DNA from: Amphiscolops sp. MND2022 | Lineage: Eukaryota | Reading direction: 5' to 3' | Length of the DNA stretch: 64,000 bases | Assembly (NCBI GenBank): GCA_964187785.1 | Contig: OZ076409.1 | Span: forward strand, 45,820,001-45,884,000 | Shown: positions 15,469-52,919 of the stretch, one piece after another | Numbering within the stretch: the first letter of the stretch is position 1 | Layout of the letters: each line of letters opens with the position of its first letter | Notes under the pieces: generated by a model | Databases searched by the model: none | What the model was told of the DNA's origin: nothing | The model's input: only the letters and a program-made list of their open reading frames with translations | Made by a program: the position numbers and the translations under genes

Positions 15469-18073
15469 TTATAAACTAAAAGGAGGTTTTTCAACAGACG
15501 GAGTTACTTGTCTCACCCGTCCATCCAGAAAGAAAGGATAGTGAGCGATAAGAGAGTATGAATTGCTGCAAGTGGAACTTCAACACTAGAAACGACTAGA
15601 ATTAAATGGGACAATTTCACTTTGATTGGGACCGAGGTCAACAAAAAGGTTTTTTACTAGCTTCGGTAATTGGGCTAGTGGTATTCTACGTTCTAAGGTT
15701 AACTAAAATTTTTATCCCGGTCTCCGCTAAGTGGAGAGGATTACATTTATAACAAAACAAAAATTTTTTTTGGGTTTTATTGACTGCTTACGAGCTGCTT
15801 GCTAATATACTTCGGGATAGGTTGTGGAAGAGCCTATTGAGTTGCGGAGCGGTTGATGGGAATGAATAGTGGTGGTCCAAATAGTTTCAGCGCTATGCGC
15901 TCTTTCGACTAGTTGAACTTGTTTCTCACTAAGTTTTCTCAATTTCTGGATTCAGGTACGGTGGGATGGATGGGATACGGGGGTGAGCATGGAAGAAGGA
16001 CCCAGTCGAAGGCGCAGAGGGTACTCCGTTTTTTGAGGAGTTGTTTTCAAGTCCTTATGGGGGTTGTTTGGGACAGAAAGTGTGGCGTTTTCCGTTCAAT
16101 TTCCGTAAAGTCGGTGATTTTGTCGTCGATTGGCACGTCTGGAATGGGTGGAAATTATTTCCAGGGCTCGTAGCGACTTGAAAATTTCACACTATATAGT
16201 ACACTGGCTGAATCGTGGGAAATTCAACGCCGATTGTACAGAAATTGACTCTATGGAGGTTACGGTTACTTAACAATGTTCATTGAAAAATTGAACATGT
16301 CGTGAAACTCTCAAAAAGTGGTCGGGTTCGCCTCCTAGGCGTCCTAGCTACTTGAAATTTTGCGTGCGAGCGTAGAAAATCCCCACACAACAAAATACAG
16401 CGGCGGATGATGTACCTGAGGTACCATTTTTTTGGGTTAAAATTCACAAAAATGTCAATTTCTCAGCTTTGACTAGCCACTGGCTGCTCAAATTGCACAA
16501 GTCGTCGGGACTTAGTGCCGTACGTATGAGAATGCAGGAATTTAAGTGCTGGGATAGCTGCAAGGAATTGCACTATGCTCAACTATAGTTCGATTTTCTC
16601 TACGATTTCGTACTCTTTTTGAGCAAAACTGCGGTTAAGATTTCTCAAGGACTAGCAGTGCTAGGGCAATGAAATTTACACCACTAACCTAACTTTGTGC
16701 GGTCTACACGATGATGTAATTCGTTTTGAGTTGCTCTTGCTAGGAGAGCTTTCGACCTGCTCTGGGAACACTACACCAATATTCCGAAATTGTCACTAAA
16801 ATATCACGTTTTTGGCAATTTCTCGGCAACCACTAGTTGGAATCACTCGCGGTTTTTTGCGTTTGCAACGTGAGGGTATATACTAACAGAAAATAAGCAA
16901 GCAAAACCTGGTAGAATCCAAATAGGATTTCTCAAAAAAATTTTTAAGTTGTACTTTTTACACTCTCGGAACAATACTGAAATAACGTGTTTTCGCCAAG
17001 AAATTTTTGTCTATCGGTTCTTGGACGTTCGAGATTGTTCCAATAGTACTGTAAGAAAGCGTGACAACTTGTTTTAAGGGGATGGGGTTCGTTCAATTAT
17101 TATTTTTGATGTTATATCTCTCAGGTCTATGGGGTCCTCTACTCAGGTCTATGTATATCAAAAGAAACAACTAGTTAAAGTTTCAATTTCTTTTGGGGAA
17201 CCTTAGAAAACAACTTGGCAGTAGTGTCTCGTACTACCAAGCTAGGGAAAAAGATTTTTGGGTGGACTTGGAAGCTTGGAAGCTAACGTCCAAGTCTTTG
17301 CCCTCGTCAAATTTGGTCAAAATGGCTAAATTTGACAATTTTTTAACAAAAATCGCTAAATTTTTCGCTATTTTTGGAAAAATGGCCCGGCAAAATTTTT
17401 CGTTCCTGACCCAGTGAGTCTGTTGGAACGTTTTTCTAGTATTCCCACTGGCCTTACTCTATTTGGCAGAATATTGGCTTTCAAAATTAGAAATTTCGGT
17501 ATTTGAGCTATAAATGGTGTTATTTTCGAGGTTTTCGAGCTCAAATTTTCTAACAACTGATCCGAATACCCTCTGGGTATTTTTCTCAGTTAGTTATAAT
17601 GGGAATAGGCCTGGGAATACTCTTTTTGGGCCGTTAAATTAAGAAAATGGACGATTTCACCCGTTTGACGTGGTATACAGCAATCACGGGGGCGTGGAAG
17701 GAACGGTCGTGTAGGACGTCACCACGTCATCACAGCTGGTGGGAACCTTCGGCGTTCGTCCTCTCTGTCCCCATACATTGCAAATTAGCTGAAAATAAGC
17801 TAGAAAACCCTTTAAAACACGTTCCGGATAGGCCGGAACAGCTTTTTTATTAGGTTTTGGTAAGGTTCAAGGTACACTGTTAGAAACTGTTAATTTCTCT
17901 AAGTAGACCCTAGAAATATGCGGAAAACACACGAACAACAATAGTACAAAGCCCAGAGGGCTGAAAAAAAGATTATAAAATTAATCTAGGACCCTCCCTT
18001 GAGCTTTTCCAAGATCCGGACCTAACAGGGTCGGAAGGCAGAAGTTGCTCCTACTTGTACGCAAAATGAAAAA

Positions 18074-18527: not shown

Positions 18528-19621
18528 GTTTTCAATCCATCATCCATATTTTGCATCTGGCAATGCTCTGCAGATGTTGTTGATTTCCCAAGGGGATGGC
18601 ACAACATTCCGATAATCTTTCTGCTGATGTTTCTTCATCTTCTGGCAATTCTTCATCTTTTTCTGCAACTTTTTCACACGTGCTCTGTTTCTTGCTCCCT
18701 CTCCGCGTGGTCTCTCTTTTTGTTCATTCGTTTCGTACCTGCTAGGTCGGCCATTTTGATTCTTCTATTTTGACATCGCACATTTCGAATTTTTCATCGA
18801 AATTTTGTCATGCCAGTTGCTGACGTTACATAAAAAGTTCAAGGAATCTTGACTGGGGAAGTTTGTATTTTTTCAGATATCTGTTTCTGTAGGCGTGCCC
18901 TCTAGCTCTGCTGTGTGGACAAAGGTGTGAAGTTTCAATTTAGGCTTTCTTGAGTTCTGACAACTGTGCCAATACAAAACCGGGCCATTGAAAATATTCA
19001 TCATCACCCAGGTTTTCTGTGCAGATCTGAAGGATTCTTGCAGAACTTTGCAGATATCTGCAGATTCGAAGAAAACATGACCAAATCAGAAACACTATAA
19101 AAACCCACAGGGATGTCAACCGAACAATGAAAACGCTGAGAACTCCTGCGAAACCTCACTTATGTCAAAATGATGAAATTTTTTTCCGAGGCAATCTGTA
19201 CAAATCTGTAGAGATTACAGATCTTAACAGAGCCAAGCGGTGACTAATAAATTACCAAAACGTATTCCGAGTTACCAGCAATTACTCCAACAAAGCAAGT
19301 TCCCAAAATATCACATTATCAACAATTCTGCAGATCGATCTTTGCAGAAAAAATCCAGCAGATCTTCCCAGATTCGCAAAGATCAAATCATGGGCAATGA
19401 TGATTGATTGTAAATTGAATAAATACCTATACAAAGAACCACTTGATTTTCTGTCGTCTATCTAAACTTGATTGTGTTGAACTCAACAACGTAGTGCTAC
19501 AGGCAAGTTGTCTCAGGTTCCAGTCGATCAATCATATAGAGCTGTTGGAGCAATGAGTCAGGTTCGTTTCAACAGACGTGCTGGTTCTATTTTATTTTGT
19601 GAATACGTAATTACATTACTG

Positions 19622-21577
19622 TGTCGCAGGCTGCCGCCTGTGATGGTACAAGGACCACTACTACTGCAGAAGGACAGGATATAGCGGCCGGAACTCTACC
19701 AATATATTAGAGGTAAACATTAAAAACACAAACTTTGCTAGTATTTTTTAGTCTACAAGTTGTACTTGTTATCGTTGCTGATTTTACATTTAGTATATAG
19801 TTTGCTGATATTAGTCCGTTCATGCCGACATTTGAAAGTTCAGATGATGTATTGACAATTGTAAAAGTTAGAAGTGCAGTATGAACACGCTGTTATAGCA
19901 ATAGATAGGCAGCTAGGAAGCGTAAAGGAAACGAGTTCAAGTGAACGTAACTCCAATTCCGGAGACGTCACTTGAGCTCAACCTGTTAGCCAATCATATT
20001 CATCCATTTGAGTAATAGTAGTGCTGTTTTTAATTAATGGCCGGTTTAGGCCATATGCCGGAAATTCATCTTTATTAATTGGCGCTTTAGTCAAACGGCC
20101 GGTTCCGGCCTTAATGTTCAGATGAAAGAATATTAGTGCAGACACTGCTGTGCTCCGTTAAATAGTAGTCTAATCATGTTGCTGTACTAATTAAACGTTC
20201 ATTTTAGCTAATTGGCGCTTTGTTCTATCCATTCCAATATTAGGCCGAATAAGGCCATTTGCCTGACTTCTATCCTTTGTTGCTGTTGCCAATTGGACAG
20301 TGGCCGGTTAAGGCCTCTTTTCAATACTATTATTCAGATGCCAGTTACAATCATTTAGTATATTTTAAATGTCATGTATAGTTACAAGTACGTCGTAAAG
20401 ACTCATGTAGCTCTTGAAATTAATTGATGTAATCAATACCAATGTATGATGTTGCTACCAATATTGGCCCAAAGGACATGTCTGGCCTTATTTGCTAGTT
20501 GGCACGTGGAATCTGTGTGCATATTATATAGAGGTAAATATGTGCTGTTACATGTAACATTGCTGTATACAAGTTGATCTAGCCTGCTAACGGGGCACGT
20601 GCCGACACGAGATTGTCAGCATTCCTGAAATATTAGAGGCGTAAACATTTTAATCGATGCTATTTGATGTACCGTGTGCCTTTTGAATACTTGTTAAAGA
20701 TGTCAAAACAGGAATTTGAACGGCCGCGTGACCTTACGATCACAGTTCGGCGGCACTTTGATGCTTACATAGTTGAGTTAAGTCAGGTGCTTTCGGAATG
20801 TGCTTGTAACATTTTTTGACTGTTTGCATCATGTTTATCCCGCCCGAGGAAGTATATATAGAAACAACTTCCTTCGGGTGGACACAATTTTGTTTTGCTC
20901 CTAATACTCAGTTGATAACACTTTTACGTTAACAATCACCAATTCTGTTTTCCGGTTTTAATATTTTAACTATTCAACCCGGTTTAGTCTTGATGCCTAC
21001 TACTAGGAAACAAAAGAAGACAAGGAAATCTAGAGGATTAGAGATTCTCTCTGATATTGAAAACCTTGATAAAATGTTAGGAGAGAACCATTTTAATGGT
21101 ACGAAAGAGACGAAAGTCTCGAAGGAACCTCTATCAGGAGACAAGAAAGCGTCACAAGTAATAACTTGGAAAATGAAGGACTAGATCCTTATGCCGATTA
21201 TGGAAACCATAGAGTTAGGACTAGCGCCATTCATGACCACAATTCTGCAAGCGTAGATTCTCAAGCTGAGATTAACAAGCTTTCGAGTGATTTGAACTCT
21301 AGAATGTCTAGGGAGATGGATGAGATGATGAACAGTGTCAGTTCTCAAATCCAGAGAGCCATAAATGATGCCATTAATAACCAGGTTTTACCCCAAATCC
21401 AGAACGTTGTTATGGCCGGTTCAGGACAGGAGACTAGAAGAGGATGGGAGACATCTATTAATAGACCCGAAATTCACTCTGAAATTCAACAGAATCCGAA
21501 GGCCAAAACTAACTTTAATAGTGAACATAGTGAAAATCACCGTAAAGGTGAAAGGACACAGTGTGATGTTCATGACA
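19622..21577 (+). repeat. 5' LTR of element B
   Basis: Direct repeat of 34056..36011 with only scattered differences; TATA box at ~20853. Confidence 0.97.
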
Positions 21578-21595
21578 TGGTGACAGGAGACAACG
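21578..21595 (+). promoter_or_regulatory. Probable primer-binding site (tRNA-Leu-like)
   Basis: TGGTGACAGGAG immediately follows the LTR-terminal CA and is one mismatch from the usual Leu PBS TGGTGTCAGGAG. Confidence 0.6.
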
Positions 21596-22685
21596 AATCT
21601 CCAAATCTAGTTCCTGAGTTTCTCACAGGACGTATCCCATCAAGAAGTCATCTCAATCAGTCCTATGAGGACATCAACCTCGACACGATGATCCCAGCGC
21701 ACGAGAGAATTGCTACAGTTGCCGATTCTGATCCCATTACTAGATTGGCCGACGTCTTGACTACAATGCAGAATAGACCAACGGCACAACAACTCACAAT
21801 ACGCCCAGTCAACTCCAATACCATGACGTTCGACGGCAAGAGTAAGAAATTTGAGCTGTTCGAAGATCTCTTCCATACTATGATCAAGATGCAGCCAGAG
21901 ATGACCGAACAAATGAAAATTAATCATTTTCATTCATTGTTGAGGAAAAATGCTCTCCAAACATTGAGAAACATCAATACGACAAATCGACAAACCCTCG
22001 AAGACGTACTAGTCATTTTCCGACGAAAATACGTCAAACCTGAATCACAGGCAACCGCCAAGCATAAATGGCACCGCCTGATCTTTGATCCCAATACGAT
22101 GAAACTGCATGATTTCCTGAATCAAGGGGCAGAGAAAGCGTTTGGAGACCATGCGCAGAAAATGATTGACAGCTTGCTCTACGCAAAACTGCCATCAAAA
22201 CTCAAGCGGTCCGTCAACATGGCCAGATTAGAAAATGGCTCATACGATGAGATAGTTGCTCATTTGGAGAGAGAATTAGAACTCAACGCCCTGGAGGAGT
22301 CAGACGACCTACCAATGGCCACAATGACCTCCTCATCTACAAAACCTAAAACTCCTCTGTCCACAGGGCAAATGTCCGATATCACTTGTAAATATTGCAA
22401 GGAAAAGGGCCACATGGTCAAGGACTGCGAAAAACTGAAAAAGAAAAAAGAGAAAGATGCCCAACAAGGCAAGTCGACCCAGAAGAAAACAAATCCGGAG
22501 TAAAGCACTTGTGGCAAAAAGAATCATCCCGATGAAAGATGTTGGCAAGGTGCTGGTGCACATCTTAAACCCAAACGCACTAGACCCGAAGACTCAACTG
22601 ACAAAAAGCCCAATTCAAAGGCTCAGAAACCTCAGACCAAACCGACATCATCGAGCTCCCAATCCTCATACTCTAATGATGAGTC

Positions 22686-22692
22686 AAAAAAC
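22686..22692 (+). other. -1 ribosomal frameshift slippery site A_AAA_AAC (gag to pol)
   Basis: The heptamer directly precedes the gag TAA, and the -1 frame is open into pol ORF 22791..23651. Confidence 0.8.
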
Positions 22693-25600
22693 TAACTTCG
22701 CCACGACTCCAATATAACGAATTAATATCTGTCCGACAATACATCAGATCGGACCCTCCAACGCGAACTTTCCACCAATACAATCAGCAATTGATGGACT
22801 ATCCCTCTGTTGTCTGGCAGCAACAGATGGAAAAAGCTACCATCATCACCTACAATAACACCCATTTATTTCAGAAACCAATTCCTGTTTGGGACCCTGA
22901 TTACACCACTACCTTCACTACCCGGTTCAGGCCCATTCCCCTAATCGATGATTACAATCCGACATACATCGATCCAGACTACGGCAGAGATCCCTACTGG
23001 GACACCGAGCTTTACAACCAAGATTCGCTGCAATTTCAATATGTCCTGGACGATATTGACCATTACAGTAGAACAGTCCACGAAAATCCTCCAATTACCC
23101 ATAACAAGAAAACACGAGCGCTAATCAAAAACTGGCAAATGAATGATGGCACAAACCATCCAGTGTTCCCAAACCCATTGGGGACCGAGAATCCTGAAAA
23201 CAGTGGTGAAACCACGCCACAATCATTACTAGACGAAAAACAATTCCAAAACGTACTCATCACCAAAGATGGTGAACCAGACTGTATACCCCTGTCAACC
23301 AACATCAACCTCAAATGCAAGAAACGCATGCTTTATTTCCCAATGGACTTTGGGGAATTGACCATTGATGGATTATTAGACACTGGGGCACTGTCCAGTG
23401 CAATCCCTGAAATGGACCTCCGGAAAATTCGTCTTCTATCTCCACAATCTGTTATCCGAGAAGGTCCGCCTCCAAACTTCCAAATCATGGTCGCTAATGG
23501 GCAACTGGAAACTCCTAAGAGTACCATAAAGCTCAAATTCGAAGTTGGTGACATTGAGTTCCATGAAATCTTTATAGTAATGGAACATTTGACAGGACCG
23601 ATCATTGGACTAATGTTCCTTCAAAGAAATCATACAGTGCTGGAGACATGAGACAAGGAATCCTGAATTTCCCGTTCTTTTCAATGCAGCTTAAAACAGC
23701 TGACCACAAATACTCCAATGTTTTAGAACCGATTCTCAACCCCACTGAAATAACAATTCCGCCAAATGACAGAGTCCTAATTAGGACCAATTCCTTACTG
23801 TATCCTGAGAATGCGGTTACCGGAATTTTGCAACCGAGCGACCTTCTACATGAAGAAGGCGACATCACATTTTGCCCAGCCTTGGTCACTCTGAATGATG
23901 GCAATATAACGATACCAGTGAACAACTTCACAGACCACCCTTACAAACTCAAAAAGGGACTTCACATTGCCAATTTCTCAGTCATGACGCCAGAACAAAT
24001 GAAATATGTCAAACCAATAGATCCGGCATCAACCTGGCACCTTTTGCAAAACGACCAAGAACAAGCGGCCCATTATATCGGCAGTCTCATCAAGACAAAC
24101 AGAAATCCTCAAAATTCTGAAAATTACTGGTTCCCAACTCCAGAAAACCCTGGACACCCCGAGGAACACACACCTATCCAGAAAGGAATCCTACGCAAGT
24201 TACCGGCCTTACAGGACCTGGAGACACTCGACCCCACTACAGATGCAGAATCGCGTGCAAAATTCCTAGAAAACTTTGACTGGAAAGATTCCACCCTTAC
24301 TCCTGAAGAAAAGGAGAAAATTGAGGAATTGTTAGTGGAATTCCATGACATCTTTGCACGACACTGATTTGATATAGGCATGAACGAGGAATTCAAGGTG
24401 AAATTAACGCCTAAGGACGATTCCCCAGCCTATAGTCAAAGCCTTCCAGCTCCTATCAACTTGAAGGAGGACATCCTAGTTGAATTAGCCATGTTACACA
24501 AATATGGCATAATAACTACACTACCATTTTCGAAATATGCGAGTCCAATATTTGCACAAAAGAAACCGAATGGGAAACTCCGACTCTTGGTTGACTTGAG
24601 GAAAATCAACAACCTCATCTCGGATGATTATATCAACAATAATCACCCCGTCAGTACACTAGTTGATGCTGCCCAACACTTGGCAGGCAAAAAAACTGTT
24701 TTGTAAATTAGACTGTTCGCAGGCATACCTTTGCCTACCAATGGCCGACCAACGCTCAATCGAAATGTTGGCTTTCAATTTTGCCAGTCGCACATTCGCT
24801 TACAGACGTTTAGCACAAGGCCTTTGTCGGTCACTATCCGCTTTCTCGTGTTTCATGAGGGAATACCTCGACAAAGTCATTAAAGCGGATCAGTGTGCCC
24901 AGTATGTGGACGATATCGGCATCGCAGCCAATGATGCTGACCATCTCATAACGAACCTGAGAGCTACGTTCAAATGCATTCAGGAAGCAGGCCTTAAGTT
25001 AACAATGCACAAATGTCACTTCGGTGCAAAAGAAATTGATTTTCTCGGACGGACTATTACCCCCACAAGGCGTCAAACCCCAGAAACAGAATGTGCAAAA
25101 CTTTATCGAAAAAACCAAATTCCCGAAGTCGAAAAAGGCTTTGCAACGCTACTTGGGATTCTTGAACTACTACAGAAATTATGTCCCAAGACTTTCAGAA
25201 CGCCTTGCTCCATTCTACAAGATGCTCAAAAGTGACGAAAAAGTCCTAGTATCGAAAGAATTAGTCCAACAATTCGAAGAAATCAATAGAGCACTAGACA
25301 AATGTTGCGACTTGGCCCTACAGCAACCCATTCCGAACAAGCAAATAGCACTAATGTCTGATGCAAGTTTTGGTGCAGCCGGGTACGCGGTCCTAATTGA
25401 AGACGACCCAAGCCAGAAATTTACATCACTCAGAAAATCATATGCACCAGTCGCATATGGATCAAAAACTTTCACCCCAGCCCAGATCAAGTTGTCAATT
25501 TATGCCAAGTAATTCCTTGCAATTTATTTTGCATTCAAAGAATTTGGCCATATCTTCTGGGGAGCGCCCAAACCAGTCATTATCTTAACTGACAACAAAG

Positions 25601-27899
25601 CTGTAACACGATTTTTCCAAACGAAAATAATACCCCCAGCACTGTGGAACGCATGTGACTATGTTATCCAGTTCAATTTTGTCATTGCGCACATCCCGGG
25701 GGCACAAAATACAGCTGCCGACTATTTGTCCCGATTGGAAGCAAATCCGAAGGACAACCTGGTGATGAAAATTCGCGAAGATGTACAAACACTGCCAATC
25801 GAAATCAATGTCCAATCCGCAGGGGTGTCACAAGAAGAACAAATCTTCTACACCAACGACGACGATGAGACAGAGGAACAGTATTGGGCAAGAAAAGAAG
25901 CAATCAAGAAAAATCCAGCAACTGATGAACCCACTGTTACCAAACAAACTCTGTCAACAAATCTGGTCAAGCAACACCCCGATATCCAAGTCCGATTAAG
26001 GAAAACGAACCAGATCATTATTGAGCAATCCAAAGATGCAGTATTACAACAATTGAAGGCAAAACTCCTTCATGAAGATTATTCAGAAGACATACTGCAA
26101 CAGGATGCCCGATACAGACACTATGCAAAAATTCTGGAACGAATTGTACTAAAGGATGAAATCCTGACAAGGCAATATTTTGATGAAACAGGGAATGTTA
26201 AATACCATCAAATTTTGCTCCCGCAACACTTACTCCAGGACTTGCTCCAATCTCTTCACAGGACAGCGCATAAACATCCTGCGATTTCAAAAATGCTGCA
26301 GGAAATTCGACAGAGGTATTACCACCCTAACATGGCTAAACATGTCAAAAAGTGGGTAGAAGGGTGCGAACAATGTGCCAGAGACAAAAGAGTCCCTAAC
26401 GCAACAATTACACCTGAACTACTCAACTTGCCCGAATGGGACCTTGGACCTGAAGACGCCATGCAAATTGACCTATTGCCGAATCTCCCCCCAAGTGGTG
26501 GGTATGAAAACGTCTTATCAGCAATCGATGTATTTTCCAGATATCTGTTGGCCTATCCCCTTACGGACGCATCAGCGATCAATGTAGCAAAAGCGCTCAT
26601 TGACATCATGACTAAACACTCATATCTACCAACGACTCTTATCACTGATAAAGGTACTGCATTTACTTCTACAATTATTGCGGAGGTTACGCAGATTCTG
26701 GGCATCACACTCAAATGTGCCACGACAAAACACCCGCAGACAATTGGGAAATTGGAGCGAACTCATGCCTCATTGAAAACAAATCTCAAAATGGCATGTG
26801 AGGAATATCGCCGACAATGGCACAAATACTTGCCATTAGCAGTACTGAATCATAATACTAGTTATCACGCCAGCATCGGTTGTGAGCCGACGAGAGTATT
26901 TCACGGAAGAATTCCATTCAATATCTTGGACCACTAGCTTGGAAATAATCCTAACGAGCAGATCAACCCCACAACCGAATTTGCTGAAGAAATCCAAAAC
27001 CGGACAAAAATCCTGATTGACAAAACGAAGCAAACATTATGCAGTCGTATATCAAGTACAAAGAATTTTATGACCGCAAAGCGAAAGCCGCTCCACTAAA
27101 GGAGAACGAATACTGTTTTGTCTTACAGCCGAAAGCGGATAATCAAGGATCAAAAATTCCATTCCGCGATTACCGTTGGGTTGGACCATTTGTAGTCCAA
27201 AAAGTTTTGCCAAATGAAAACTATATAGTACGACGGATTAACACGAACAGAACTCAAATTTTGCATCGGATCCGTCTTAAAAAGTTTGTCCTCAATCAAC
27301 CGCTTGAAGACAATTTCCGAGAACAACGGTTGCAGCCAGACGAAGAAATTGTCATTCCGCAAGATGATTTATATATCATAACGTGGGAAACCGAATTTGG
27401 CGAGCAGCTAGTTACACAAGGAAGCGAGACTATTCCGACTAGCACGCCGAATGGCGAACGGCCGAATGCGGCAGAAACGAATACAAATGACGTAACCGAG
27501 AATGAAGCGGATTACATAATCACGCGAGAAGTAACGAACAACGGCAATGCAGCGCAAAGCCGGAATGACCGCTTAAATGATGACGTCACTGAAAGAAATG
27601 AATCTACTGCAGTCACAGAAAATGAAGAATCTGATTGGCCGAATCCGACCGTTTCCCCAAAAAACCAAGAAAAATCATTGCCGAATACGGCAGATAGACT
27701 GAAAAACGATGAAAATTTTTCAGAAAGAAACTTGACGAATGAAAACGATACACAAAATTCTCCAAACAGGGGGGATGATATTATCGTGCCCGAAATATCT
27801 GAAAACGATGCTAGAAATGAAAGTCTGAGCCCTAGAGGAGGAAAATATAACCTCAGGCCTAACCCCAACCCAAACTACTCAGAAGACTTCAGATACTAA
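22692..27899 (+). pseudogene. pol: pol of element B (protease, dUTPase-like spacer, RT, RNase H, integrase, GPF motif, acidic tail); several stops and frameshifts
   Basis: LLDTGA; QYVDDIGI; SDASF; H..H..C..C and IDLL/ITDKG/ERTH integrase motifs; WVGPFVV. Confidence 0.95.
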
Positions 27900-28126
27900 G
27901 AATTGAATTTCTTCCCGAAAATGGGAATTCTCTTCTATTCATTCCTTTTATCCTTTTTCTGGCCCCTCAAAGTATCTTTTGCAATAAATAATTGGGGCAT
28001 TACAAATGATCCCTTACAAAGAAATAAATATGGGATCAAGGCAACAACGAACAAAATGAATATAAATACGAAACAGAAAATGAACAAAGCATACAGTCTA
28101 CAAGTACATGAATACATATGTACACA

Positions 28127-31100
28127 TTAGTTCTTAGAAGATCCCTGGACAAGTTTCTTGGAGGCAGACGAGATAGTGGAATTACTGCTGCCCATTCTTT
28201 TCCGTTGTGTCCGGGAAGGAAACTTTACGGCAGAGTCATCCGGCACGGAAGAGGCAGTTCCTTTCCCCAGACGAACAGCCCGAGTGGGGGAAACAGCAGT
28301 GACGGTCTTATAGGAGGCAAGAAGGCTCTTGTAGATCTTGGACCTACCGAACTCATCCACAAAGGTCCATTGATCGTAATCGGGGGAGAAAGCTGAACGC
28401 TCGAAGGAAGAACTGAGAGCTGAGAACTTTTCTAAATTGGCATCAGAGCAACAATACGAAATGGAATCAGGCACGCAAGAAAGGTAACTCTGACAGGGCA
28501 CTACCAGGTCAGCAAAACGGCGTCGGTGTCCAGATGTGTCAACACTCCCAATTGATACTGGAGGATATTGGGGACTTTGACCTGTCAGACACAAGCAGCA
28601 CAGCTTGAAGAGATGAAAAATGTGCTCATGAGTTTGAAAAAACTCGAGCCGCATCAGGAAGTCTATGAGGTCACTGGAATTTTCCAGAGATCAAAATCTG
28701 GAGGATAATTGACCCGCAGGTGATCCAACAAAGCCAAATACTCATCTCGACAGATGTTCTCATTCTCACTGGAGACCCAAGAACGAAGCTGAAAGGTCGA
28801 ATGTAGCACCTCAAAATGCCGGAGTCCGACCTCTGTCGGCCTTTTGAAGAGGACAAAAGGGTCAAAGGCGGTGAACCCCTTGATCACCTCGGAACTCAGG
28901 CCGGCTTGGTTGAGAACCTGCTTAATCAGGTACTGAATGAAGTGCAGTCCCTCTTTGACAAAACTGCTGGTTGTTTCTGCAGCTGTCTTATCAATGCAGC
29001 GGCCTTCTCGGATTTTTTGTTCAGATGAACAACATCAGCACACTGTTTGCTGGCAGTAGCTATCCGATTCGTCAATCGGTGCCGGATAAGGAAATCGTCC
29101 TCACTGATGAATTTTCCTTCGCTCACGTTGAAATTAAGGAGAAGGAACCACGAATTCTCGAGAGGGATGGTCTCTGGAAAGTAGCATCTGGCACATAGCT
29201 TGGAGACGGAGCGACAGACTTCTCCACAGAGGAAAAATGATGCATCTCGTCGGCCCTGCAGATTGACAACGAAACTGGAAACATCTGGAAATACAACGGA
29301 CAAGATCATGAAAGGAACAAAATGTTCGCGTGAACCCATGACAACATGCCTACTATGTTAGTAGTCCAAAGAATCAAGGATCAAGGACCGTCCAGATAAT
29401 GCCTTAAAGTATCGATATGGACATGTGGCGGTATACTCACAATCACTGATTATGCGTTGGAAGAGCTCCAACTTGACGACGAAGAAAGAGTCGCAGATAA
29501 GAGACCACTCGAAACTCTGCACTTGATTGTGGACCCCCTGCATTCCTTGATGTGGAGTGTGTGATGTCAAGTACTGCCTGACTGCCTTCCAATGTTTCAC
29601 GAGTTCCCGGCAGAGATTGGGTAAACTCGACAAGTCCAGTTTGCAGGTATCAATGGCCTAAATGGACCCAAAATGCCTTTTGCCCGTACCTACCCCCTAA
29701 CCCTTTGCGCCTTAGGTTTGGACTTGAAATACTAACTTGTGCTAGCTCAGGGGATTGCAGGACCCAGTCCTCGCCAGTAGCTGCCCCAAGTGAAACCATG
29801 AGGCATTTCAGAACAGAGAAAAAGTCTATTCTGCCAAACACACTGTAAGTTGGCTTGTGCATCATCTTCTGAAGTTGCAGGTGTTCGAAGCGAAAACAAC
29901 TCTGGACAGCCCGAGGGAAGAAAGCATTATGGTCGATAGTCTGGATCAGCTCCACTGGACATCCTGAGCAAGCAACTATATCGGCCTTGGTGGACACTAC
30001 TGAAAGAAGTCTGGAAAGAGACCCCAACTCCCCAGTGAGATCAGTGGAAGGAAGCCCACTTCGGCACACGTAGATTCGACAGAGAGTGTCGCCCTTCCAG
30101 AATTTGACAGACATGAGTCTGTTCACGCCCTCATCCTCAAACTCGATGGCAAAGTGCTGTGTGGTAGCAATCTGCTCCGCTAAATCACTCATTGCACAAT
30201 TGAAAATGTGCTGGAAGATGGCCTGGAAAGGAAAAGGAGGATTACGAAATGTGTGGAGGACTTTGGCCTCCCTCAAGCAGTACGCAAACTCAAAAGAGAA
30301 CTTACCGAAATTCTTTCCTCGCCCCAATAGATGTCGCAGTAGCTGATCTGGTAGTTGGTCAAAGAGCTTATTTGGGACCACAATTTGCGGAGCATTCCAA
30401 TATCTCCAAGTTGTTGTACGAAGTCCCCGATGAGATGGATCTGCGTCTTGGCCCTTGATTCAGGGGTGACAAGTGTGGTCGACGTACCTTTTATGAAATC
30501 ATCGTAAAAGGGGAAGCGTTCTCCGATGTCCACCAGCTCGACGTGCATGAAGTGGCGCCTCTCCTTTGCCAACTCTATCTCCGAGAGGATCTTCCCATTA
30601 CGGCCTCTCACTCGATGTTGCACCTTTCCAGACACGGAGTGGACGCTTTTAAGGTGCTCGTAGCGCCATCTTTGATCCCGTCTGAGGTGCTTCTCAGTAC
30701 TGTGGTGTCGCAAGATTTCTAAATTCCCCCTAGTCTTCACGGAGATATTCTTTTTGCATATATGGCACCACACCATATATGGATTGTGAAGGGGATCTGC
30801 TGGTCCGGAAATGAATGAGCGCGTCCAACCGATCTTAGAGAAGAACCCTCTCTCATAGGAACACCTCGAGTCTGCTTGCGTCGCTTCCTTTTGGGCGCTT
30901 TACCCGAACTTGAGGCCAAAGGCGGGGCGGGAGAAGTTTGAATCCGCAGCTCAGAAAGAGTGGCATCAAGGCTTGACTGCTCCGTAGATTCAAAGCCTGC
31001 TTGGGAAGGATCATCTTGTGTAACCTTACGAGGAGTAGAAGCAGGTCTGAAAGGCTCCTTGAAAGCCTGTGAGATGAGCGCCATCTCGCCAGAACTATCA

Positions 31101-32310
31101 GTATCGTTGAAGGAGTCCAGCCCTCTGTCTTCTTGCCCTGAACTCGATCCAGCAGACGTATCGGTTCCCGATTCAGGGAAATTTTCAGTGCGCGAGCTGT
31201 CTTCAGAATCACTGTGCAGACCAGGTCCTGGAGTTTGGGCTCTTGGCCTGACACGGAATTGATCAGTTCGGGAACTGGAAGTGACCGGAGCTCCGCGAAC
31301 TGCCCCAATCACCATCTGTTCCATGGCAGTAAAGGACATTTTCAACGTCTCATCAGTAAGAACTCTCAAAAGATGATATACTTGTGGCTCAGTGAAAGCC
31401 ACTGTTCTATGGCCGAGAGGGAAGTTGATGGTGGAGGCATCCTCATCAAAGTACTGTTTCAAAATGGCCCGGCTGCGGCCAGAGAGCTCCCTGACTTTGG
31501 AATCTTTCCCTGTAGATGTTGACGGACGCATGACATCGGGACGATGGATGGAAGTATCAACTGATGATTCTTCTGCAGTTTCAGTCGCATTTCCTACTGG
31601 TTGGAAGTTGTATAGGGCAGGTCCACTTGCCTGGCTGGATGTGTCACCGGCTTCCTCAGTGCCAGTCACGTCGTCCAAATATATCACATCCGTGACTCCT
31701 GTTGGCAGTTTGGGGGCATCACATACAGAGGAACTCTCATCAGTCTCATGCTGAAGGAATGACGCTGCTGACACGTTGGCAGAAGTTCCACAAGTTGTCA
31801 ACAACTCTAGCAATGCCGTCAGAGAGGAGGGAGCAATCGTTAGACCAGCTTCTAGCTGTGTTAAGTTCAGCCCTGCAGACTCACTGGGCAAGTTCTTGGT
31901 TGGAGTGCTGGTTTGGAAAAACAATGTAGAATTTTGGGGTTCAATCCCAGCAGCAAGCTGGCATTCTCTTCAATCTCCTGTTCCCTGATTTCAGAATCCT
32001 TGGCAACTTGTCCCTCTTCCTGTTCCTGGACTTGCTCAAGAAAGAGAACTTTCTCATCTGCATACGCAGTAACGTCAACGTTACTGTCAAGACAGCTAGG
32101 CGACCTTGGAGGTCTTGTTGGAGGGAAGGGTGGAGGCGATGGTTGCGGCCTACGGACAACGTTGGACACTCCTGCAGAAGTAGTACTCAGGACACGCTCA
32201 CTGGGAATATCTGCTGATGTGTTGGCTTGGACTTGAGGATCATCTCCTGGCTGATTTGCTAAACAAAAAGAGATGAAATTTGGCGGTGAGCTTCCTTGAA
32301 AGAAATCCAT
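28127..32310 (-). pseudogene. Antisense spliced accessory gene of element B (~1300 aa): disordered N-terminus, NLS, BED/TTF-like zinc finger, degenerate hAT-transposase-like body
   Basis: Seven colinear ORF pieces; phase-0 GT-AG introns at 30223..30305 and 29658..29736 restore the frame; WCHICKKNISVKTRGNLEILRHHSTEKH; KAPKRKRRK. Confidence 0.75.
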
Positions 32311-33358
32311 TTCACCGCATTAGAAAACTTCCGGAAGTGTTTGAAAATTTGAATGAAAAACGTTATCACGTGTTCATTGACGGAAACAGGAAGCACTTTG
32401 TGAACAAATTTGACCCTGATTAAGTTAGATTTAGTTCAAAAATAAAACAAACCAACTTTCAGACGAAGACATTCTGGGGCAAGACTGATTGTAGGGAATG
32501 AGTCCTTGTTCGACTGAAATGGATAGGGGAACTTGGCCGAGTCCGGCTGAAGAAGGAGATCTGGGATACTCTGAAGAGTAGAGCTGACGGAAGAAGAAGT
32601 GGACGTACAAGGATGAATCTCAGTTGGGAGGATACAAATAAAAGAAACAGATGTAGAGTAATCAGAAATGGAATTGGATTGGAATTTTAATGTAAAAGAA
32701 TTGAAGAATTGGAGTTCGTGGCTGAAGATTATTACCAGACTAATATTATGGATTATGTACATATTTATTTTGTACATGGAGTCTGCCAGCGAAGTGTACA
32801 AAGAACTTTGTTATTTACAGCTTATTTAGTTAGAGGCCGGTTATGGCCGTTTGCCCTGTTTTGTTTAGCCGTTTCGTCCAGTTACCCTAGTTACCCTTAA
32901 CTAGAATTTTCGCCATTTTGAGTTATTTGGATTTAATATTTTCGCCATTTTATTATTTAATCTTACAACTTATCGAAGCTTAATGCTGATTGGCTGAAGC
33001 CTTTTTGAAAGAATTCCGCGTCGCGTGTCGTTAATTGCCATCAGGCAAACAGTTAATTACCCACTTGAAACGGGTGAAGATAATATTTACAACTCAAGCG
33101 TCATCAACACCTCTCAGAGTGATGGTGTTGATAGGGGGTAAACACTGAGTTATCAAAGGAAGCCGACTAATTATAAAATTCCATTCAGGAATGTTTACGT
33201 CGGATCAGGGCGATTTACCGATAACTCGTCCGCCAAAACGAATTGCCGGGAAAAGGCCCGAGTCGACTAAATTTTTGAGTTGGTAAATTCATTCCACTTT
33301 GAAATCTCACTCAAGCTAGTTAAATTCTCCAGTCAGCAAAATTGCTAAGAAACTCATA

Positions 33359-34144
33359 ATGCAAAGATATAACCTAACTAAAAAGCTCTTTGATCTTGAA
33401 GAAGACTCAGAAAGCTAAGTGGATTCAGTGATCTACATCTCAAGTGACAGTGAGAATGAAGTCTCAAGTTCCTGGGACTCGGACTGGTCCACGGATACAG
33501 AAGAGATCATAGAAAGAATAGAACGAGAGGTGAAAGCTGCTCCAATCCCTATAGCGGGACGCGCAATGACGACAGAAGATTTAGACGATGAGATGACAGC
33601 TGGACCAAGCAGTGCTTGGCCTGTTCCGCCCTCTACCCCTAAACTGGGATTCGAGTATTTTAACAAGGAAATGTGATTGGCTCCATCGAAAAAGCAAAGA
33701 AAATCAAAAGTCGAGCTCTGTGCAACTGTATTACCCGTTCTGGAGTCCCCACTGTCTCCTCCCGACCATGAAAGGGGACCGAGCATTGACACCCCTCTTG
33801 TGCAGTCAACCTCTGGAACTTTCTATGCGTCCTATCATGTGCAAAATACCGAGCCTTATCAGGACATGAGCCAAAATTTGCACACAGGCTGTATGGTATG
33901 CGGCAAATCGAGAGATCAAATAAAAGCAGAAAAGGTGATCTGGTACATGCAAAGATCGACACCTAGCAGTGAGCCCGCTTATATCACCGCCCTACGACGA
34001 GAGGCTTATGAAAATGGCTTGAACGCAGGAAGCTTACTTTTTCTAACACCCGCAGTGTCGCAGGCTGCCGCCTGTGATGGTACAAGGATCACTACTACCG
34101 CAGAAGGACAGGATATAGCGGCCGGAACTCTACCAATATACTAG
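33359..34144 (+). pseudogene. Small sense accessory ORF (~260 aa, two in-frame stops) ending inside the 3' LTR
   Basis: ATG at 33359 is in frame with ORFs 33419..33676 and 33677..34144; VIYISSDSE motif, PSKKQRKSK and CMVC. Confidence 0.65.
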
Positions 34145-36011
34145 AGGTAAACATTAAAAACACAAACTTTGCTATCATTTTTTAGTCTACAAGTTGTACT
34201 TGTTATCGTTGTTGACTTTACATTTAGTATATAGTTTGCTGATATTAGTCCGTTCATGCCAACATTTGAAAGTTCAGATGATGTATTGACAATTGTAAAA
34301 GTTAGAAGTGCAGTATGAACATGCTGTTATAGCAATAGATAGGCAGCTAGGAAGCGTAAAGGAAACGAGTTCAAGTGAACGTAACTCCAATTCCGGAGAC
34401 GTCACTTGAGCTCAACCTGTTAGCCAATCATATTCATCCATTTGAGTAATAGTAGTGCTGTTTTTAATTAATGGCCGGTTTAGGCCATATGCCGGAAATT
34501 CATCTTTATTAATTGGCGCTTTAGTTAAACGGCCGGTTCCGGCCTTAATGTTCAGATGAAAGAATATTAGTGCAGACACTGCTGTGCTCCGTTAAATAGT
34601 AGTCTAATCATGTTGCTGTACTAATTAAACGTTCATTTTAGCTAATTGGCGCTTTGTTCTATCCATTCCAATATTAGGCCGAATAAGGCCATTTGCCTGA
34701 CTTCTATCCTTTGTTGCTGTGGCCAATTGGACAGTGGCCGGTTAAGGCCTCTTTTCAATACTATTATTCAGATGCCAGTTACAATCATTTAGTATATTTT
34801 AAATGTCATGTATAGTTACAAGTACGTCGTAAAGACTCATGTAGCTCTTGAAATTAATTGATGTAATCAATACCAATGTATGATGTTGCTACCAATATTG
34901 GCCCAAAGGACATGTCTGGCCTTATTTGCTAGTTGGCACGTGGAATCTGTGTGCATATTATATAGAGGTAAATATGTGCTGTTACATGTAACATTGCTGT
35001 ATACAAGTTGATCTAGCCTGCTAACGGGGCACGTGCCGACACGAGATTGTCAGCATTCTTGAAATATTAGAGGCGTAAACATTTTAATCGATGCTATTTG
35101 ATGTACCGTGTGCCTTTTGAATACTTGTTAAAGATGTCAAAACAGGAATTTGAACGGCCGCGTGACCTTACGATCACAGTTCGGCGGCACTTTGATGCTT
35201 ACATAGTTGAGTTAAGTCAGGTGCTTTCGGAACGTGCTTGTAACATTTTTTGACTGTTTGCATCATGTTTATCCCGTCCGAGGAAGTATATATAGAAGCA
35301 ACTTCCTTCGGGTGGACACATTTTTGTTTTGCTCCTAATACTCAGTTGATAACACTTTTACGTTAACAATCACCAATTCTGTTTTCCGGTTTTAATAATT
35401 TAACTATTCAACCCGGTTTAGTCTTGATGCCTACTACTAAGAAACAAAAGAAGACAAGGAAATCTAGAGGATTAGAGATTCTCTCTGATATTGAAAACCT
35501 TGATATAATGTTAGGAGAGAACCATTTTAATGGAACCGAAAGAGACGAAAGTCTCGAAGGAACCTCTATCAGGAGACAAGAAAGCGTCACAAGTAATAAC
35601 TTGGAAAATGAAGGACTAGATCCTTATGCCGATTATGGAAACCATAGAGTTAGGACTAGTGCCATTTAGACCAGAATTCTGCAAGCGTAGATTCTCAAGC
35701 TGAGATTAACAAGCTTTCGAGTGAGTTGAACTCTAGAATGTCTAGGGAGATGGATGAGATGATGAACAGTGTCAGTTCTCAAATCCAGAGAGCCATAAAT
35801 GATGCCATTAATAACCAGGTTTTACCCCAAATCCAGAACGTTGTTATGGCCGGTTCAGGACAGAAGACTAGAAGAGGATGGGAGACATCTATTGATAGAC
35901 CGGAAATTCACTCTGAAATTCAACAGAATCCGAAGGCCAAAACTAACTTTAATAGTGAACATAGTGAAAATCACCGTAAAGGTGAAAGGACACAGTGTGA
36001 TGTTCATGACA
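34056..36011 (+). repeat. 3' LTR of element B
   Basis: Direct repeat of 19622..21577, followed by TSD TACTG. Confidence 0.97.
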
Positions 36012-36884
36012 TACTGTGATTTGGAAATCATCCGCCGGGCGACTTAAAGCTTGACTTTTTTCGAAATCAATTGAAAATTTTGAACAACGTCAGAAGTGAA
36101 AGTTTCTTCGAAATTCTCTGTTTCTCATTAGTATTTGGATTGAATTTCTGAGACCAAAATTAAGAAAGTTACAAATAGCTAATTTTTAGCAAAATTTGGA
36201 CATTTTTCTTTTTCCCATTTTTCTGTTTTACCTACAGCTTTGTGGCACGTTTTATGCTCAATCAACTTCAGAATGTTTCTGAAACAAAAAATAAATCATT
36301 GAAATCTTAACAATCTGCAGAATCCGATGAAATTAACGTTTTAAGAAAAAAGTTCGAAGACCTACTAAAATCTGGGAAATTAACTGATATGTTCTTCCTG
36401 CGCCTGAGTTTTCACTTGATGCGCCAATCAATATTGAAAGTGAGAGCAATTACGCTAAATTATTAATTGGTTGATAACGACGCTCAGCGCACAGGGGTAT
36501 GATTTCCTATTCACAGTACTGTGCTGTAACAAATAATATTGAACAGTGATTATGCGTCCTTTTTGAGTACAATTTACTAATACATTACGATAAAACATTG
36601 TGAAACGGGAACCGTTTAGTGGTCCCAGCACCTCTCAGTGACGTTACTGGTAAATGCCTTTAGTCTTGTTTTGTTGAGTATTGTGACCAACAATGATCCC
36701 AAAGTTTGAAAGGTGTTCCTTGAGGGTATTTGATGTTCTTTCATGTATCCATTATACGATGAGAAGGTTGCTGATTGATGTTGTAATATACCTCTCCACT
36801 TAAAGTTTAGCTGCTTAGTATTATAATACCACTTGATTGCCTTTCCAGAAGACATGCTTTGTTGACATATTCACTGTAACTTTA

Positions 36885-40200: not shown

Positions 40201-42585
40201 CAGACTACCTATGCTCTGGCCGAGACCAATAGCTTAGCCATGCAAAATGCTCCCACTGTGTTCAAGAAAACCATTTGGCAATCCGAGACTTTGACACGGA
40301 ACTGCATGAACATGTAAACACTGTTCATGGCATCAAACACTTGGTGCCTGCTCAAAAACGTGAAGTCAACGTCTTGGCTATTAACATCGTTGGTCCCAAA
40401 AGAGACCATCGAACATCGAACTTTACTGAAGACGTGCGCGTGTTCACACGCAAATACTAGAAGCAAAACATATTCTGTTAATTAACAAATAGAGGTCTTT
40501 TGTATAGAGTATTCCCCCTCATCCACTGGTTGAACGTCCGTGCATGATTGTAATGCCTCACTTTTAACAGCACGAATTTTTGCTCCATACCCACGATGCT
40601 ATGCGTCAACAAGACATCACCAAGATGATGGCGCGCACACAACAGCGCCATACTTGGCCGGGCATTCGCTGTAGTGTAGGGCAGTACGTGAGCCAACAAG
40701 TGCGTGATAAACCAGGTAACGTGCGATTCCGCTAGAAAAATGTCCAAAGTGGGTATTTCAACGAACTAGTCCAGGATGATCACTTACAAATTTGCCCCTC
40801 TGACAACAACAATACGAGGAGACTGGTGAACCTTTGTCTTTTTTTCAAGCTGAGACGGTTCCTTGCCGTCATGAGGTATACGATGCGGTATGCCGTCACG
40901 TCTAGGTTTTCGTTGCAGAAATGGTTTGCCAAGCACGGCACTCCTAGGCGCATGCAATCTGACAATGCGCCCAACATGACTCCGTAGGTGTCGAATGAGG
41001 TCATGATAGCCACCCACGTCACCAAGATCATCTCCACAGCCGAAAATCCGCGTACTCAGGAGTTGATCGAGCTCCCAAATCGTACCGCACTGACTTTGTT
41101 GTGAGTTTTCTGCTCGCAGCGCATGAGACATTCGGACCAACGCCTAAATGAAGGTGTTGGTCGCCTATAGCTCTACAGAAGCGGCACACAGTCGGGTGTG
41201 TTAGTGCTAGCGACACTAGTCTGCCGTGCAATACCTCGAAGATTGAGAAAAGTCTAAAAACTGAAGCTAACGACGGTGGAGCAAGTTATGTTAATAAAGT
41301 TTACGATGAAATTAATAAAAAATTGACTCTGAATTAACGTCTTCATCTGACGTTGATTTTCTGTCTTCAACCGGACTAACGAGAAAAGCTTGTCTGAACG
41401 TGAAAAGAACGCCCAAGTTGATGCGCTCCTGTCGTGGACCGCTTAAGGTTGTCCATGTGCGTTTTAGACGCAGGTCAAAATGCACTTTTCGAACTCTTAA
41501 AACCGCATCCTAGCGAACCGAATTCGTTGCTGCCCCTCTTGATACAGACGAGAAAGCAGTCTTAATGGACGCGGAGCCTGAACGCTCCATAAAAGAGATA
41601 AACGTTGATGCATCTAAATTTTCTTTTCAAACTGAAAAACTGCTTTCAGAATCATCGGACGTTTTCTTGCCCTCGCGCGAACGTCTGTGGATGAATACTC
41701 GTCTGTGCACTACCCTCCGAACGGCCCTTGCCATATTTCGGAGAATGAACCAGTGAAGAGAAAGGTCTAGAGCGCACTTCGGCTACGGTAGTGCCATCGT
41801 TTTCTCCCAGCATAGTGTTTAAACGATTTAATTTTGAGCGAGAACCTGTGCGATTATCACGGTGTTTAACAGCAAAAATGCTGTTTGACACGTATGGTGT
41901 GCGATGGAGCAAGACGGGTTTTTCAGATCGGCCTCGCACTAGTGGCTGGTGGTCACCGCCCCACATGTGGAAGCTCTACTAAGCCCACAACTTTTGTTAG
42001 CTTGCTTGTTAGCTTCCGCCACGAAGGAGATAATTCTGTGCGTCCGTATCATAGATTGGTATCAACGCAAAGTGAATTTTGGCTGGACGTTTGAAATATT
42101 CATTACGTGGTTGGCCACCCGTTGTCCACGAATCCGCTTGTTAGATTAGCGGACACACACTTTATGGAACAGTTGCCCGCGAAGGCAGCCATTAGCACTT
42201 TAATCGCGTGGTCCGGGCGAACGTTGATACTCATGCGTTGCCACGCTCTTTGTCGCAAGATTCAGCCGCGGTACAAGGACGTCGTCCTCGGGTATGCCTG
42301 ACTCAGACATTGGACCCGGGATGGAAACTGTGTATCCTGGAGTCCTGCTCCAAAACTTGGTGGAGTACATATTTTACGATATGGCCAACGTTCTGGAAGC
42401 AGAAGGTGATATTGTGTTGGCTTCCCCAGCCGAGCTGGGAACCAATTTAACAGCCTTGCGATGTGTACTGACCAAGTATAAAAAAGAGTCTTTCCGTTTT
42501 GACCGCCCCTAGTAAATAGTAGGGGAGATTTTAACCGTAACACCGCGTGTACTCACAATCTCTCTCAGTCCATTCACATAGTAAT

Positions 42586-42785
42586 NNNNNNNNNNNNNNN
42601 NNNNNNNNNNNNNNNNNNNNNNNNNNNNNNNNNNNNNNNNNNNNNNNNNNNNNNNNNNNNNNNNNNNNNNNNNNNNNNNNNNNNNNNNNNNNNNNNNNNN
42701 NNNNNNNNNNNNNNNNNNNNNNNNNNNNNNNNNNNNNNNNNNNNNNNNNNNNNNNNNNNNNNNNNNNNNNNNNNNNNNNNNNNNN
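42586..42785. other. Assembly gap (200 N)
   Basis: Run of N. Confidence 1.
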
Positions 42786-48193: not shown

Positions 48194-48460
48194 AACCAAA
48201 TGAGGAGGGATTCCCTAACTTAGGGAATTCCTCCTCATTTGGTTCAACACCTTATTCTCGATCTTTTGAGTGAAATTATTGAAAGTTTTACTTTACAGTT
48301 GAGTCTCATCTTTTGTTCTTTTGCTTGATGTTTTGGGTTCGCTCACTGAATTGAATTCAGTGAGCGAACCCAAAACATCAAGCAAAAGAACAAAAGATGA
48401 GACTCAACTGTAAAGTAAAACTTTCAATAATTTCACTCAAAAGATCGAGAATAAGGTGTT
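48194..48460. repeat. Two abutting palindromes (51 bp and a perfect 215 bp)
   Basis: Arms 48194..48218/48220..48244 (one mismatch) and 48246..48352/48354..48460 (perfect). Confidence 0.97.
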
Positions 48461-51060: not shown

Positions 51061-52919
51061 TTTTTCATGATTGGATAAACAAAGCCACCTTCCAAGTTTT
51101 ACATGTACAGAAGAACACACAAACATCAAAGCTACTTCTTTGGAAAGCGCCTGATTAGGACATAAGTCCCATGATAGCGTGACAAAGGAGTGAAAGATAG
51201 TTTGACACGTGACATTATAAACTTTTCTTGGGTGAAACAACAAAACAGTAATAAATGTCAACAACGCATCAAAGAATCATCCTGCACTAAGAATTACAGG
51301 AATGTGAACATTCCTTTGCAAGCACGTGCCTACGCACGCAGGCTGAATATTTGTTTGAAATAATAAATTTAGTACTGTGACCTTTATTTTTTCATGTTAA
51401 AATATCTACTTCATGGTGGCCAGAAAACGCTTTCGGACTAAAATCTGGACCTGACATTTCTGTCAGAAAGGTTCCAAGAGCCAATACATCATATGTTCAG
51501 CTTCGATAGGCAACAGATCATCGTTATTTTTATTGAATACTTATGTGCATGAAAAAAACATTAAGTACTTTCAGATCAAAAGCACATCATTATTGGTTAA
51601 GTAAAGCGTTCCGCATAAATAAGACAAGTATTGGCCGGAGTCGGCCGTTTGACTTGCGTCACATGAGTCGCAGCTTCATTTGGCCAAATGGTTGTAACCG
51701 GCATAATAAAATAATACTGCATAGCAACAAAGTATTTGTATAAATCTGATTGGTTGATTTTTGAACTGAACTCAACGCTGCCGTGAGAAACGTTTCCGCA
51801 TTTGAACACATTTCCTTTCCGCTGATTAATTGCCTACAATTTTTATTAGCTCTTTCAAAACACTTTACATACATCGTAACTTCAATAGGTTCGCCCTCTT
51901 GATTTGAATACCTCAAATCGTAATATTTTACCAGACTAATCTAAATAATCGAATCTAACAACGATATACGAAGGTAGCAACATCTGAAATGAAAAGTTTT
52001 CTTATTAAAGTAAAGAGTTTTTGTTTTGTTGAGTGTTGGGCAGAGTTCCAGGTGCGATTTCTTGCCCAGTTGTTGTCGTCGTTGTCGTTGTCCCGTCATA
52101 GGCGGCAGCCTGCGACACATCCTGTTAATCATATTTAGTTTTTGTTACTGAGCAGTGTTAAAATATAATGAAACAAGACGCCCGCTAAGCATCGGGATAT
52201 TTTCCTCTTAAAACGTAACGCATTATCACGGATTCGAACCCACGACCTCAAATCTGCCAGGTGACTTGATGGAGTTACTAAATGTGTGTTACTAAATGTA
52301 GTAAATGTGTGTTACTAAATTTTGCCGTGTTACTAATTGGAGAAATAAAGTGGAGTTTCAGTAGAATTTGTAAAAAAACGCAACACAGGTTATGATTTTC
52401 CTCCGCCATTATATGTGGGCAGAAAATAATAATAAAGTTAATCTTCTGATGTGGGTTCGGTTGTTGGTTGAAAAACATTAATCATCATGAACCTTAGACA
52501 TTTTCCGCTTGCAAAATTGTGCTAGAAAGGCTTTTCGCTTGAAGGTTTCACATAAGGAAGAATGTACCATATGGTTGACATTATGTAGTCTCTGCGTTTA
52601 TAATCGCTTAAATTCAATTATAATCAAAGACCGCATTGTATGAAACATATCTTTAAAAGAAGACGTTCCCTCCAAACTGCAAACTTTGTATCCCTCCTCG
52701 CTTGCATTGTTAAAAAGATTATTTTTTACCTCAATATTCCAAACATAACTGTAACTTTTGGGCATCAAGATTATAAAAAACTACGGAAATATTGTTTTTT
52801 CCTTCTTGAACTTCCAAACTCTTCGTTGTTGAAAACTTCCAATTTCCTCCCATCCAGTTGCTTGAACTTAGAATAAACAGTTTTCTGATTAAGCAGTTTT
52901 TCAAGTAGGAGTGCGCCAG

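Follow-up and report, generated by a model that had tools for sequence, protein, structure and literature searches.

A gene carried in antisense orientation by a Ty3/Gypsy LTR retrotransposon was found within the window (the whole stretch of DNA that was analysed, 64,000 nucleotides). On the sequence evidence the gene appears real and is well supported, and its reading as a dead hAT transposase is moderately supported. We consider it likely that this is a hAT-derived accessory gene with predicted loss of the catalytic residues, whose product would be a nuclear DNA-binding regulator that aids transcription of its own element or shields the element from silencing.

Host element and structure of the antisense gene

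The host of the antisense gene is a complete Ty3/Gypsy LTR retrotransposon (19622–36011). Paired LTRs with TG...CA ends are flanked by a short target site duplication (TSD; 5 bp, TACTG), and protease, RT, RNase H and integrase are present in the order typical of Ty3/Gypsy. The 5' and 3' LTRs are 98.6% identical (1,928 matches, 27 mismatches, 2 gap columns). The stretch that separates pol, which ends at 27899, from the 3' LTR contains the antisense gene and a sense ORF divergent to it. Features are given below with window positions and strand.

19622–21577 (+): 5' LTR, TG...CA, 1,956 bp, with TSD TACTG at 19617–19621 just before
21097–27899 (+): gag-pol with CCHC knuckle, protease, RT, RNase H and integrase, in Gypsy order
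28127–29284 (−): predicted exon 5, remaining insertion domain and hAT C-terminal region
29441–29657 (−): predicted exon 4, where the insertion domain begins
29737–30222 (−): predicted exon 3, modelled as a helix, three strands, (a helix), a strand and a helix
30306–32258 (−): predicted exon 2, N-terminus, basic stretch, zinc finger and helical region
30687–30770 (−): zinc finger CxxC-x15-RHHxxxxH, the best-conserved part of the protein
30875–30901 (−): basic stretch KAPKRKRRK, putative nuclear localisation signal
32457–32472 (−): predicted exon 1, ATG, 16 coding bases and GT donor
33326–34144 (+): sense ORF of ~274 aa, divergent to the antisense gene and extending into the 3' LTR
34056–36011 (+): 3' LTR, with TSD TACTG at 36012–36016 just after

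The gag-pol region of the window copy is disrupted by stops and frameshifts. As the antisense gene carries four frameshifts and gag-pol is broken too, the window copy is inert.

Several other features of the element were noted. In all 30 of 32 loci in which the boundary was located, a polypurine tract was absent upstream of the 3' LTR and the sequence was pyrimidine-rich instead. This pyrimidine-rich stretch lies within the sense ORF in the window (34030–34056), and such stretches mostly end in CAG. The first part of the gag frame sits in the LTR (20994–21577 and 35428–36011), and the primer-binding site at 21578, which we take to resemble the 3' end of tRNA-Leu, falls within coding sequence. 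A weak dUTPase-like signal (Pfam E 0.046) was seen between protease and RT (23567–24367, +). The sense ORF is interrupted by one stop in the window copy and matched no Pfam family. It has an acidic N-terminus and one CxxC and can be regarded as a second accessory gene. It is under purifying selection (dN/dS 0.10–0.16) and has been swapped among elements independently of the antisense gene.

For sequence comparison, 40 other loci were fetched from the 1.07-Gb genome assembly that was searched and were combined with the window to give 41 sequences. Twenty close loci were taken from the best 150 finger-exon matches, with long open frames favoured, and 20 divergent loci were picked among the first 100 listed of the 470 sites that match a variant of the finger pattern.

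The antisense gene has five predicted exons between pol and the 3' LTR. Every motif string quoted in the earlier note was found among the window ORFs, all on the minus strand: WCHICKK...HHSTEKH in ORF 30273–30899, QHFAIEFEDE...KFWKG and IVACSGCP in ORF 29650–30459, AFDP and RDEYLALLDHL in ORF 28663–29034, and HIFHLFKLCCLCL in ORF 28127–28690. These pieces are spread over several frames because of the predicted introns and of four frameshifts private to the window copy, two in exon 2 (about 31958 and 30846) and two in exon 5 (about 28998 and 28686; reference, locus L024). The extent of 28127..30850 first given for the gene was too short, since its ATG lies at 32472, ~1.6 kb further upstream. 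The string KAPKRKRRK, named as a nuclear localisation signal, does exist, but at 30875–30901 it falls beyond that extent and in another frame than the finger. Across copies, the sequence of this basic stretch varies and its basic character is retained.

Splicing of the antisense gene was inferred from conservation. At the three fixed internal introns, GT donors were counted in 40, 40 and 39 of the 41 sequences (the non-GT donors comprise one mis-mapped, one deleted and two GC) and AG acceptors in 41, 41 and 41. Intron lengths vary freely from about 66 to 249 bases while the splice signals stay, and the splice sites are conserved between copies that are just 50–60% identical in protein. Length and phase of exon 1 recur in 32 of 41 sequences (6 without anchor, 3 without match). 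An in-frame ATG close upstream of the exon 2 acceptor is also conserved and is a candidate alternative start. An extra intron in exon 4 is polymorphic (absent in 22 sequences, present in 17, unclear in 2). Using a pattern for one junction, no intronless copy was matched (0 matches). By established retroelement biology, the RNA that is packaged and replicated has sense polarity, opposite to the gene, and antisense introns cannot be spliced from it; this would allow the introns to survive. Summed exon lengths give a predicted product of ~1,300 aa. Its N-terminus, encoded in exon 2, is long, Ser/Thr/Pro-rich and likely disordered.

Selection, exchange between elements and proposed role

The finger pattern gave 1,283 exact matches in the genome, compared to 17 for the reversed control. 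Given these counts and purifying selection on the exons, the antisense gene is not a chance ORF. Pol adjoins the last exon in 20/20 close and 20/20 divergent loci (one truncated); as the loci were selected via the antisense gene itself, 40/40 is no share of all elements. Within the sampled copies, the antisense position between pol and the 3' LTR is family-wide. Open frames of 678–730 aa were present in many of the 150 copies listed.

The antisense gene is under purifying selection in many copies. From 16 chosen pairs, and where dS was unsaturated, dN/dS was 0.01–0.04 for the finger region, 0.05–0.11 for exon 3, 0.06–0.23 for exon 5 and 0.08–0.21 for the N-terminus. With sense-strand RNA being what is packaged (established retroelement biology), the purifying signal would have to reflect a benefit to copying of the element.

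RT and integrase are 95–99% identical where the antisense protein drops to 53–77%. RT distance fails to predict exon 5 distance (rho −0.06; 496 pairs, 32 loci), and the cassette has thus been exchanged between pol lineages. Loci L026 and L089 differ by a p-distance of 0.006 in RT and of 0.42 in exon 5. Finger and LTR divergence are weakly correlated (rho 0.29; 300 pairs, of which those with L024 are artefactual, from the interrupted LTR of that locus), so that a strict subfamily lock-and-key on the sampled part of the LTR is not favoured. In a profile search of 1.84 billion representatives, 662 clusters were obtained at E<=0.001; the clusters listed reach down to 24% identity, with distant homologues at 24–40%. 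Longer relatives of exon 5 were not present among 4,411 candidates, and finger-region relatives were not found in the viral or metagenome contigs searched.

The proposed history would start with an old hAT insertion, in antisense orientation, inside a Ty3/Gypsy element. The inserted hAT would have lost its ends and its catalysis, and the dead gene would have been kept since it helps the element to copy itself, with intact copies supplying the protein in trans. A nuclear DNA-binding regulator is the best fit to the kept finger, basic stretch and transposase scaffold combined with an added low-complexity N-terminus. Whether the benefit is transcriptional we judge evenly balanced; in that case, finger and transposase scaffold would bind element DNA and the low-complexity N-terminus would recruit host machinery. 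More tentatively, a whole intron-containing DNA-transposase gene may have been domesticated, disarmed and used as a swappable anti-silencing cassette, with ancient variants maintained through a host–element arms race and with an antisense position that permits intron gain and loss. If true, the plant TnpA/VANC systems would have a counterpart in an animal, carried by a retroelement, and the domesticated anti-silencing cassette may explain the expansion of the family.

A protein of the same hAT origin might act at integration instead, by binding LTR ends or target DNA and tethering or shielding the pre-integration complex. Transposases bind element ends and oligomerise (general knowledge), which is in line with such a role, as is the stronger conservation of finger and C-terminal region compared to the rest of the protein. 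However, the protein does not co-vary with the enzymes, since the cassette moves freely between pol lineages (rho −0.06 over the 496 pairs), although this argument is weakened by the near invariance of integrase itself (95–98%). The protein would also come from a separate antisense transcript. Overall, a function in integration seems unlikely.

Alternatively, a product of this origin could be a counter-defence protein that acts on host silencing proteins as decoy or inhibitor, with many old variants retained because host adaptation is directed at the common ones. In its favour are variants so deeply diverged that synonymous sites are saturated, beside near-identical RT, e.g. in L026/L089, and the weak link to LTR type. 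However, constraint is strongest on the finger, replacement changes were not seen in excess, and template switching alone can yield the mosaic. We consider counter-defence quite improbable.

Relationship to hAT transposases

The antisense protein is very probably derived from a whole hAT transposase gene. The hAT-type origin put forward in the earlier note gained moderate support from the structural rank of Hermes and from a collinear match to a hAT-subfamily profile.

Fold evidence was gathered exon by exon. For exon 5, an AlphaFold2 model was built from a natural sequence with a 76-row alignment (pLDDT 72, pTM 0.63). Hermes transposase (8edg_A) was ranked 5 of 48,161 representative chains for this model. 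The match (Z 5.4, rmsd 6.2, 165 residues) places residues 1–280 of the model collinearly on Hermes 367–609; its Z is below the level that the tool deems meaningful for helical models. The other 49 of the top-50 rows had <100 aligned residues, mostly in one helical hairpin. Hermes had been named as target beforehand, and the matched range is that expected of the last exon. Of the comparison by AlphaFold and Foldseek suggested at the outset, the exon 5 ranking of Hermes spoke for the relationship, whereas Foldseek returned nothing at E<=0.001 with either the exon 3 or the exon 5 model, including PDB and viral models. Hermes was absent from the listed rows of Foldseek's 127 candidates, and a follow-up alignment also gave no match. 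The exon 3 model (pLDDT 54, low) showed RNase-H-like strand order, and no transposase was among the rows listed for it in the fold searches. A helical insertion domain and C-terminal region like those of Hermes were found with moderate scores, collinear in both methods.

For profile comparison, a template was prepared from 80 metagenome loci gathered with a short hAT motif (LPHSNA-type). The hAT subfamily with the C-terminal motif LPHSNA..ER.FS is presumably related to ZNF862-type proteins. The Pfam cut-off for Dimer_Tnp_hAT was passed by 3/3 long ORFs of the template, and the template set keeps D (32/33), D (27/28), H (27/30), W (27/30) and E (62/62). Because the template was chosen via this motif after the resemblance had been noticed, the comparison is a targeted test, and its E-values are pairwise.

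An X-joined exon profile served as HHalign query. The score was 31.8 with no context pseudocounts and 40.4 over 265 columns with context pseudocounts and a deeper query, for which 24 shuffled nulls reached at most 27.7. The deepest query scored 51.9 (281 collinear columns over exons 3–5, probability 70%, pairwise E 4e-5); the 24 nulls were made at the query depth of the 40.4 score. Exon 5 alone aligned end to end with a score of 35.6 (12 nulls at most 27.6), and exon 3 alone gave no significant alignment to the template core. The zinc finger weakly matched the fingers of 4/4 full-length LPHSNA-type ORFs (E 0.001–0.006 among 63 ORFs). It had been described as a BED/TTF finger; a CCHH finger is indeed conserved, but the label was unconfirmed by Pfam (zf-BED best E 0.07).

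Pfam hAT families were matched by none of the exons, and 0/76 exon 5 rows were over the cut-off for Dimer_Tnp_hAT. PDB sequence searches gave no match. The hAT transposases of the genome itself, which are of other subfamilies, gave no signal in profile comparisons, and two other hAT templates yielded nothing. Searches for DUF4371 and zf-C17orf113 gave no match anywhere, and the controls were blank too. In view of these negative Pfam, PDB, Foldseek and genome-hAT searches and a Hermes Z of 5.4, the protein might be a common zinc finger plus helical bundles that is not derived from hAT. Against this, two independent methods arrive at hAT with one and the same collinear alignment, and deeper queries raised the profile score, so that an origin outside hAT is distinctly unlikely.

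The idea that catalysis had been eroded was borne out in the inferred register, where none of D, D and E is intact. The three positions are as follows.

30130–30159 (−): first strand, in which the inferred catalytic Asp 1 position holds Glu
29956–29979 (−): fourth strand, in which the inferred Asp 2 position reads Ser-Gly-Cys, with no acid
28547–28600 (−): region matching the hAT catalytic Glu motif, in which Glu aligns to Val/Ile

The Asp 1 position is Glu in 100/101 rows. The Asp 2 strand has S in 99, G in 96 and C in 82 of 101 rows, and an alternative HHalign register for Asp 2 falls on a column that is Asp in just 55/101. As exon 3 alone was not significantly aligned, both Asp registers were set by eye from the order of the strands. 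The template residue E671 falls on V242 (V 73, I 20, D 2 among new rows), and the neighbouring position is variable. Conserved CxxH or RW motifs are absent from the inferred registers. Terminal inverted repeats (TIRs), of which the earlier note had seen none either, were not found in common among three copies scanned (25 longest pairs listed per copy). TIRs with an 8-bp TSD were not found around the gene in these three copies, and 40/40 loci lie inside an LTR element. Given hAT ancestry, we would expect with high probability that the protein has no nuclease activity.

Several near-invariant acids occur in exon 3 (E27, E29, D81, D97, D133) and exon 5 (D258), and with these the acidic site of a nuclease or strand-transfer enzyme could have been rebuilt. 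Such an enzyme is nevertheless very improbable: the template catalytic Glu aligns to Val/Ile, the Asp 2 strand is without acid in the strand-order register (the alternative HHalign column being Asp in only 55/101 rows), and no TIRs were seen in three copies. A last reading takes the gene for the passive remains of a hAT transposon that had landed in the retrotransposon, and the likely origin by hAT insertion and the broken window copy could be cited for it. This reading is contradicted by dN/dS far below 1 on all exons, by conserved splice sites and by the open frames (678–730 aa) that many of the 150 listed copies have, and can practically be dismissed.

Comparison with known systems and further observations

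The closest precedent for the antisense gene is provided in plants, by antisense ORFs that Ty3/Gypsy elements of the Retand/Tat kind carry (Grande gene23, RIRE2, Retand Transposase_28 PF04195). According to PMC7264820, these ORFs lie between pol and the 3' LTR, occur in most copies and have a nuclear or proposed regulatory role; the same text calls origin and role of antisense extra genes of LTR retrotransposons unknown. Transposase_28 is reported for 57/104 antisense ORFs in PMC11963269. Antisense orientation, position between pol and 3' LTR, as well as a transposase-associated domain, are shared between the Retand-type ORFs and the gene studied here. Unlike them, the latter has an animal host, a predicted whole hAT-like scaffold of ~1,300 aa instead of one small domain, and four or five predicted spliceosomal introns, one of them polymorphic. 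PF04195 itself was not matched by the exons of the antisense gene in Pfam searches.

With hAT transposases (Hermes, 8edg; LPHSNA subfamily), the antisense protein is predicted to share the order of finger, RNase-H-like strands, helical insertion and C-terminal region. It differs from them in being without intact DDE, CxxH and RW in the inferred register, without TIRs seen, in its 490-aa low-complexity N-terminus and in riding in an LTR element.

VANC is reportedly a transposon-borne DNA-binding protein without catalysis. TnpA, VANC, FAR1 and MUSTANG work for DNA transposons or for the host and are mostly from plants, whereas the antisense gene sits in a retroelement. By analogy, the antisense protein may be likened to Spm TnpA, VANC, FAR1 and MUSTANG as transposase-derived or transposon-borne, putatively DNA-binding and non-catalytic (bioRxiv 10.64898/2026.08.24.746577). 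That preprint also reports activation of cognate copies by transposases and a recurrent loss of DDE among regulators derived from them; in its main text, the words 'retrotransposon' and 'LTR' are absent. Loss of catalysis marks transposase-to-regulator conversions, and here the converter would be another selfish element and not the host.

Searches of the open-licence PMC/bioRxiv literature listed no paper that describes an LTR element with a complete, spliced gene of hAT origin. Antisense extra ORFs of plants are already known; new, with moderate support, would be the whole, spliced, hAT-derived gene in an LTR element. An antisense extra gene could thereby be traced, with moderate confidence, to a specific DNA-transposase family. 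With >1,200 copies, many of them open, and with cassettes shuffled over near-identical pol backgrounds, the family offers natural variants for testing gene function and for studying intron behaviour in a retroelement.

Elsewhere in the window, another Gypsy element, not related to the first, occupies positions 1–15500 (−). It has additional ORFs downstream of pol and a tandem duplication of 2 kb (1407–3424 / 3420–5436). No homologue of the antisense gene was present in this second element. A diverged relative of the LTR start with 45 genome matches was located at 51500–52118 (−) and is probably a solo LTR of a related family. In addition, a perfect 107-nt inverted repeat with 1-nt spacer (48246–48460), a 1.39-kb tandem duplication (43660–46438) and a run of N (about 42570–42780) were observed. 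Among the metagenome sequences, L187:260-2959 (−) encodes a hAT transposase that carries an OTU protease domain (Pfam E 3.5e-14) as an N-terminal fusion.
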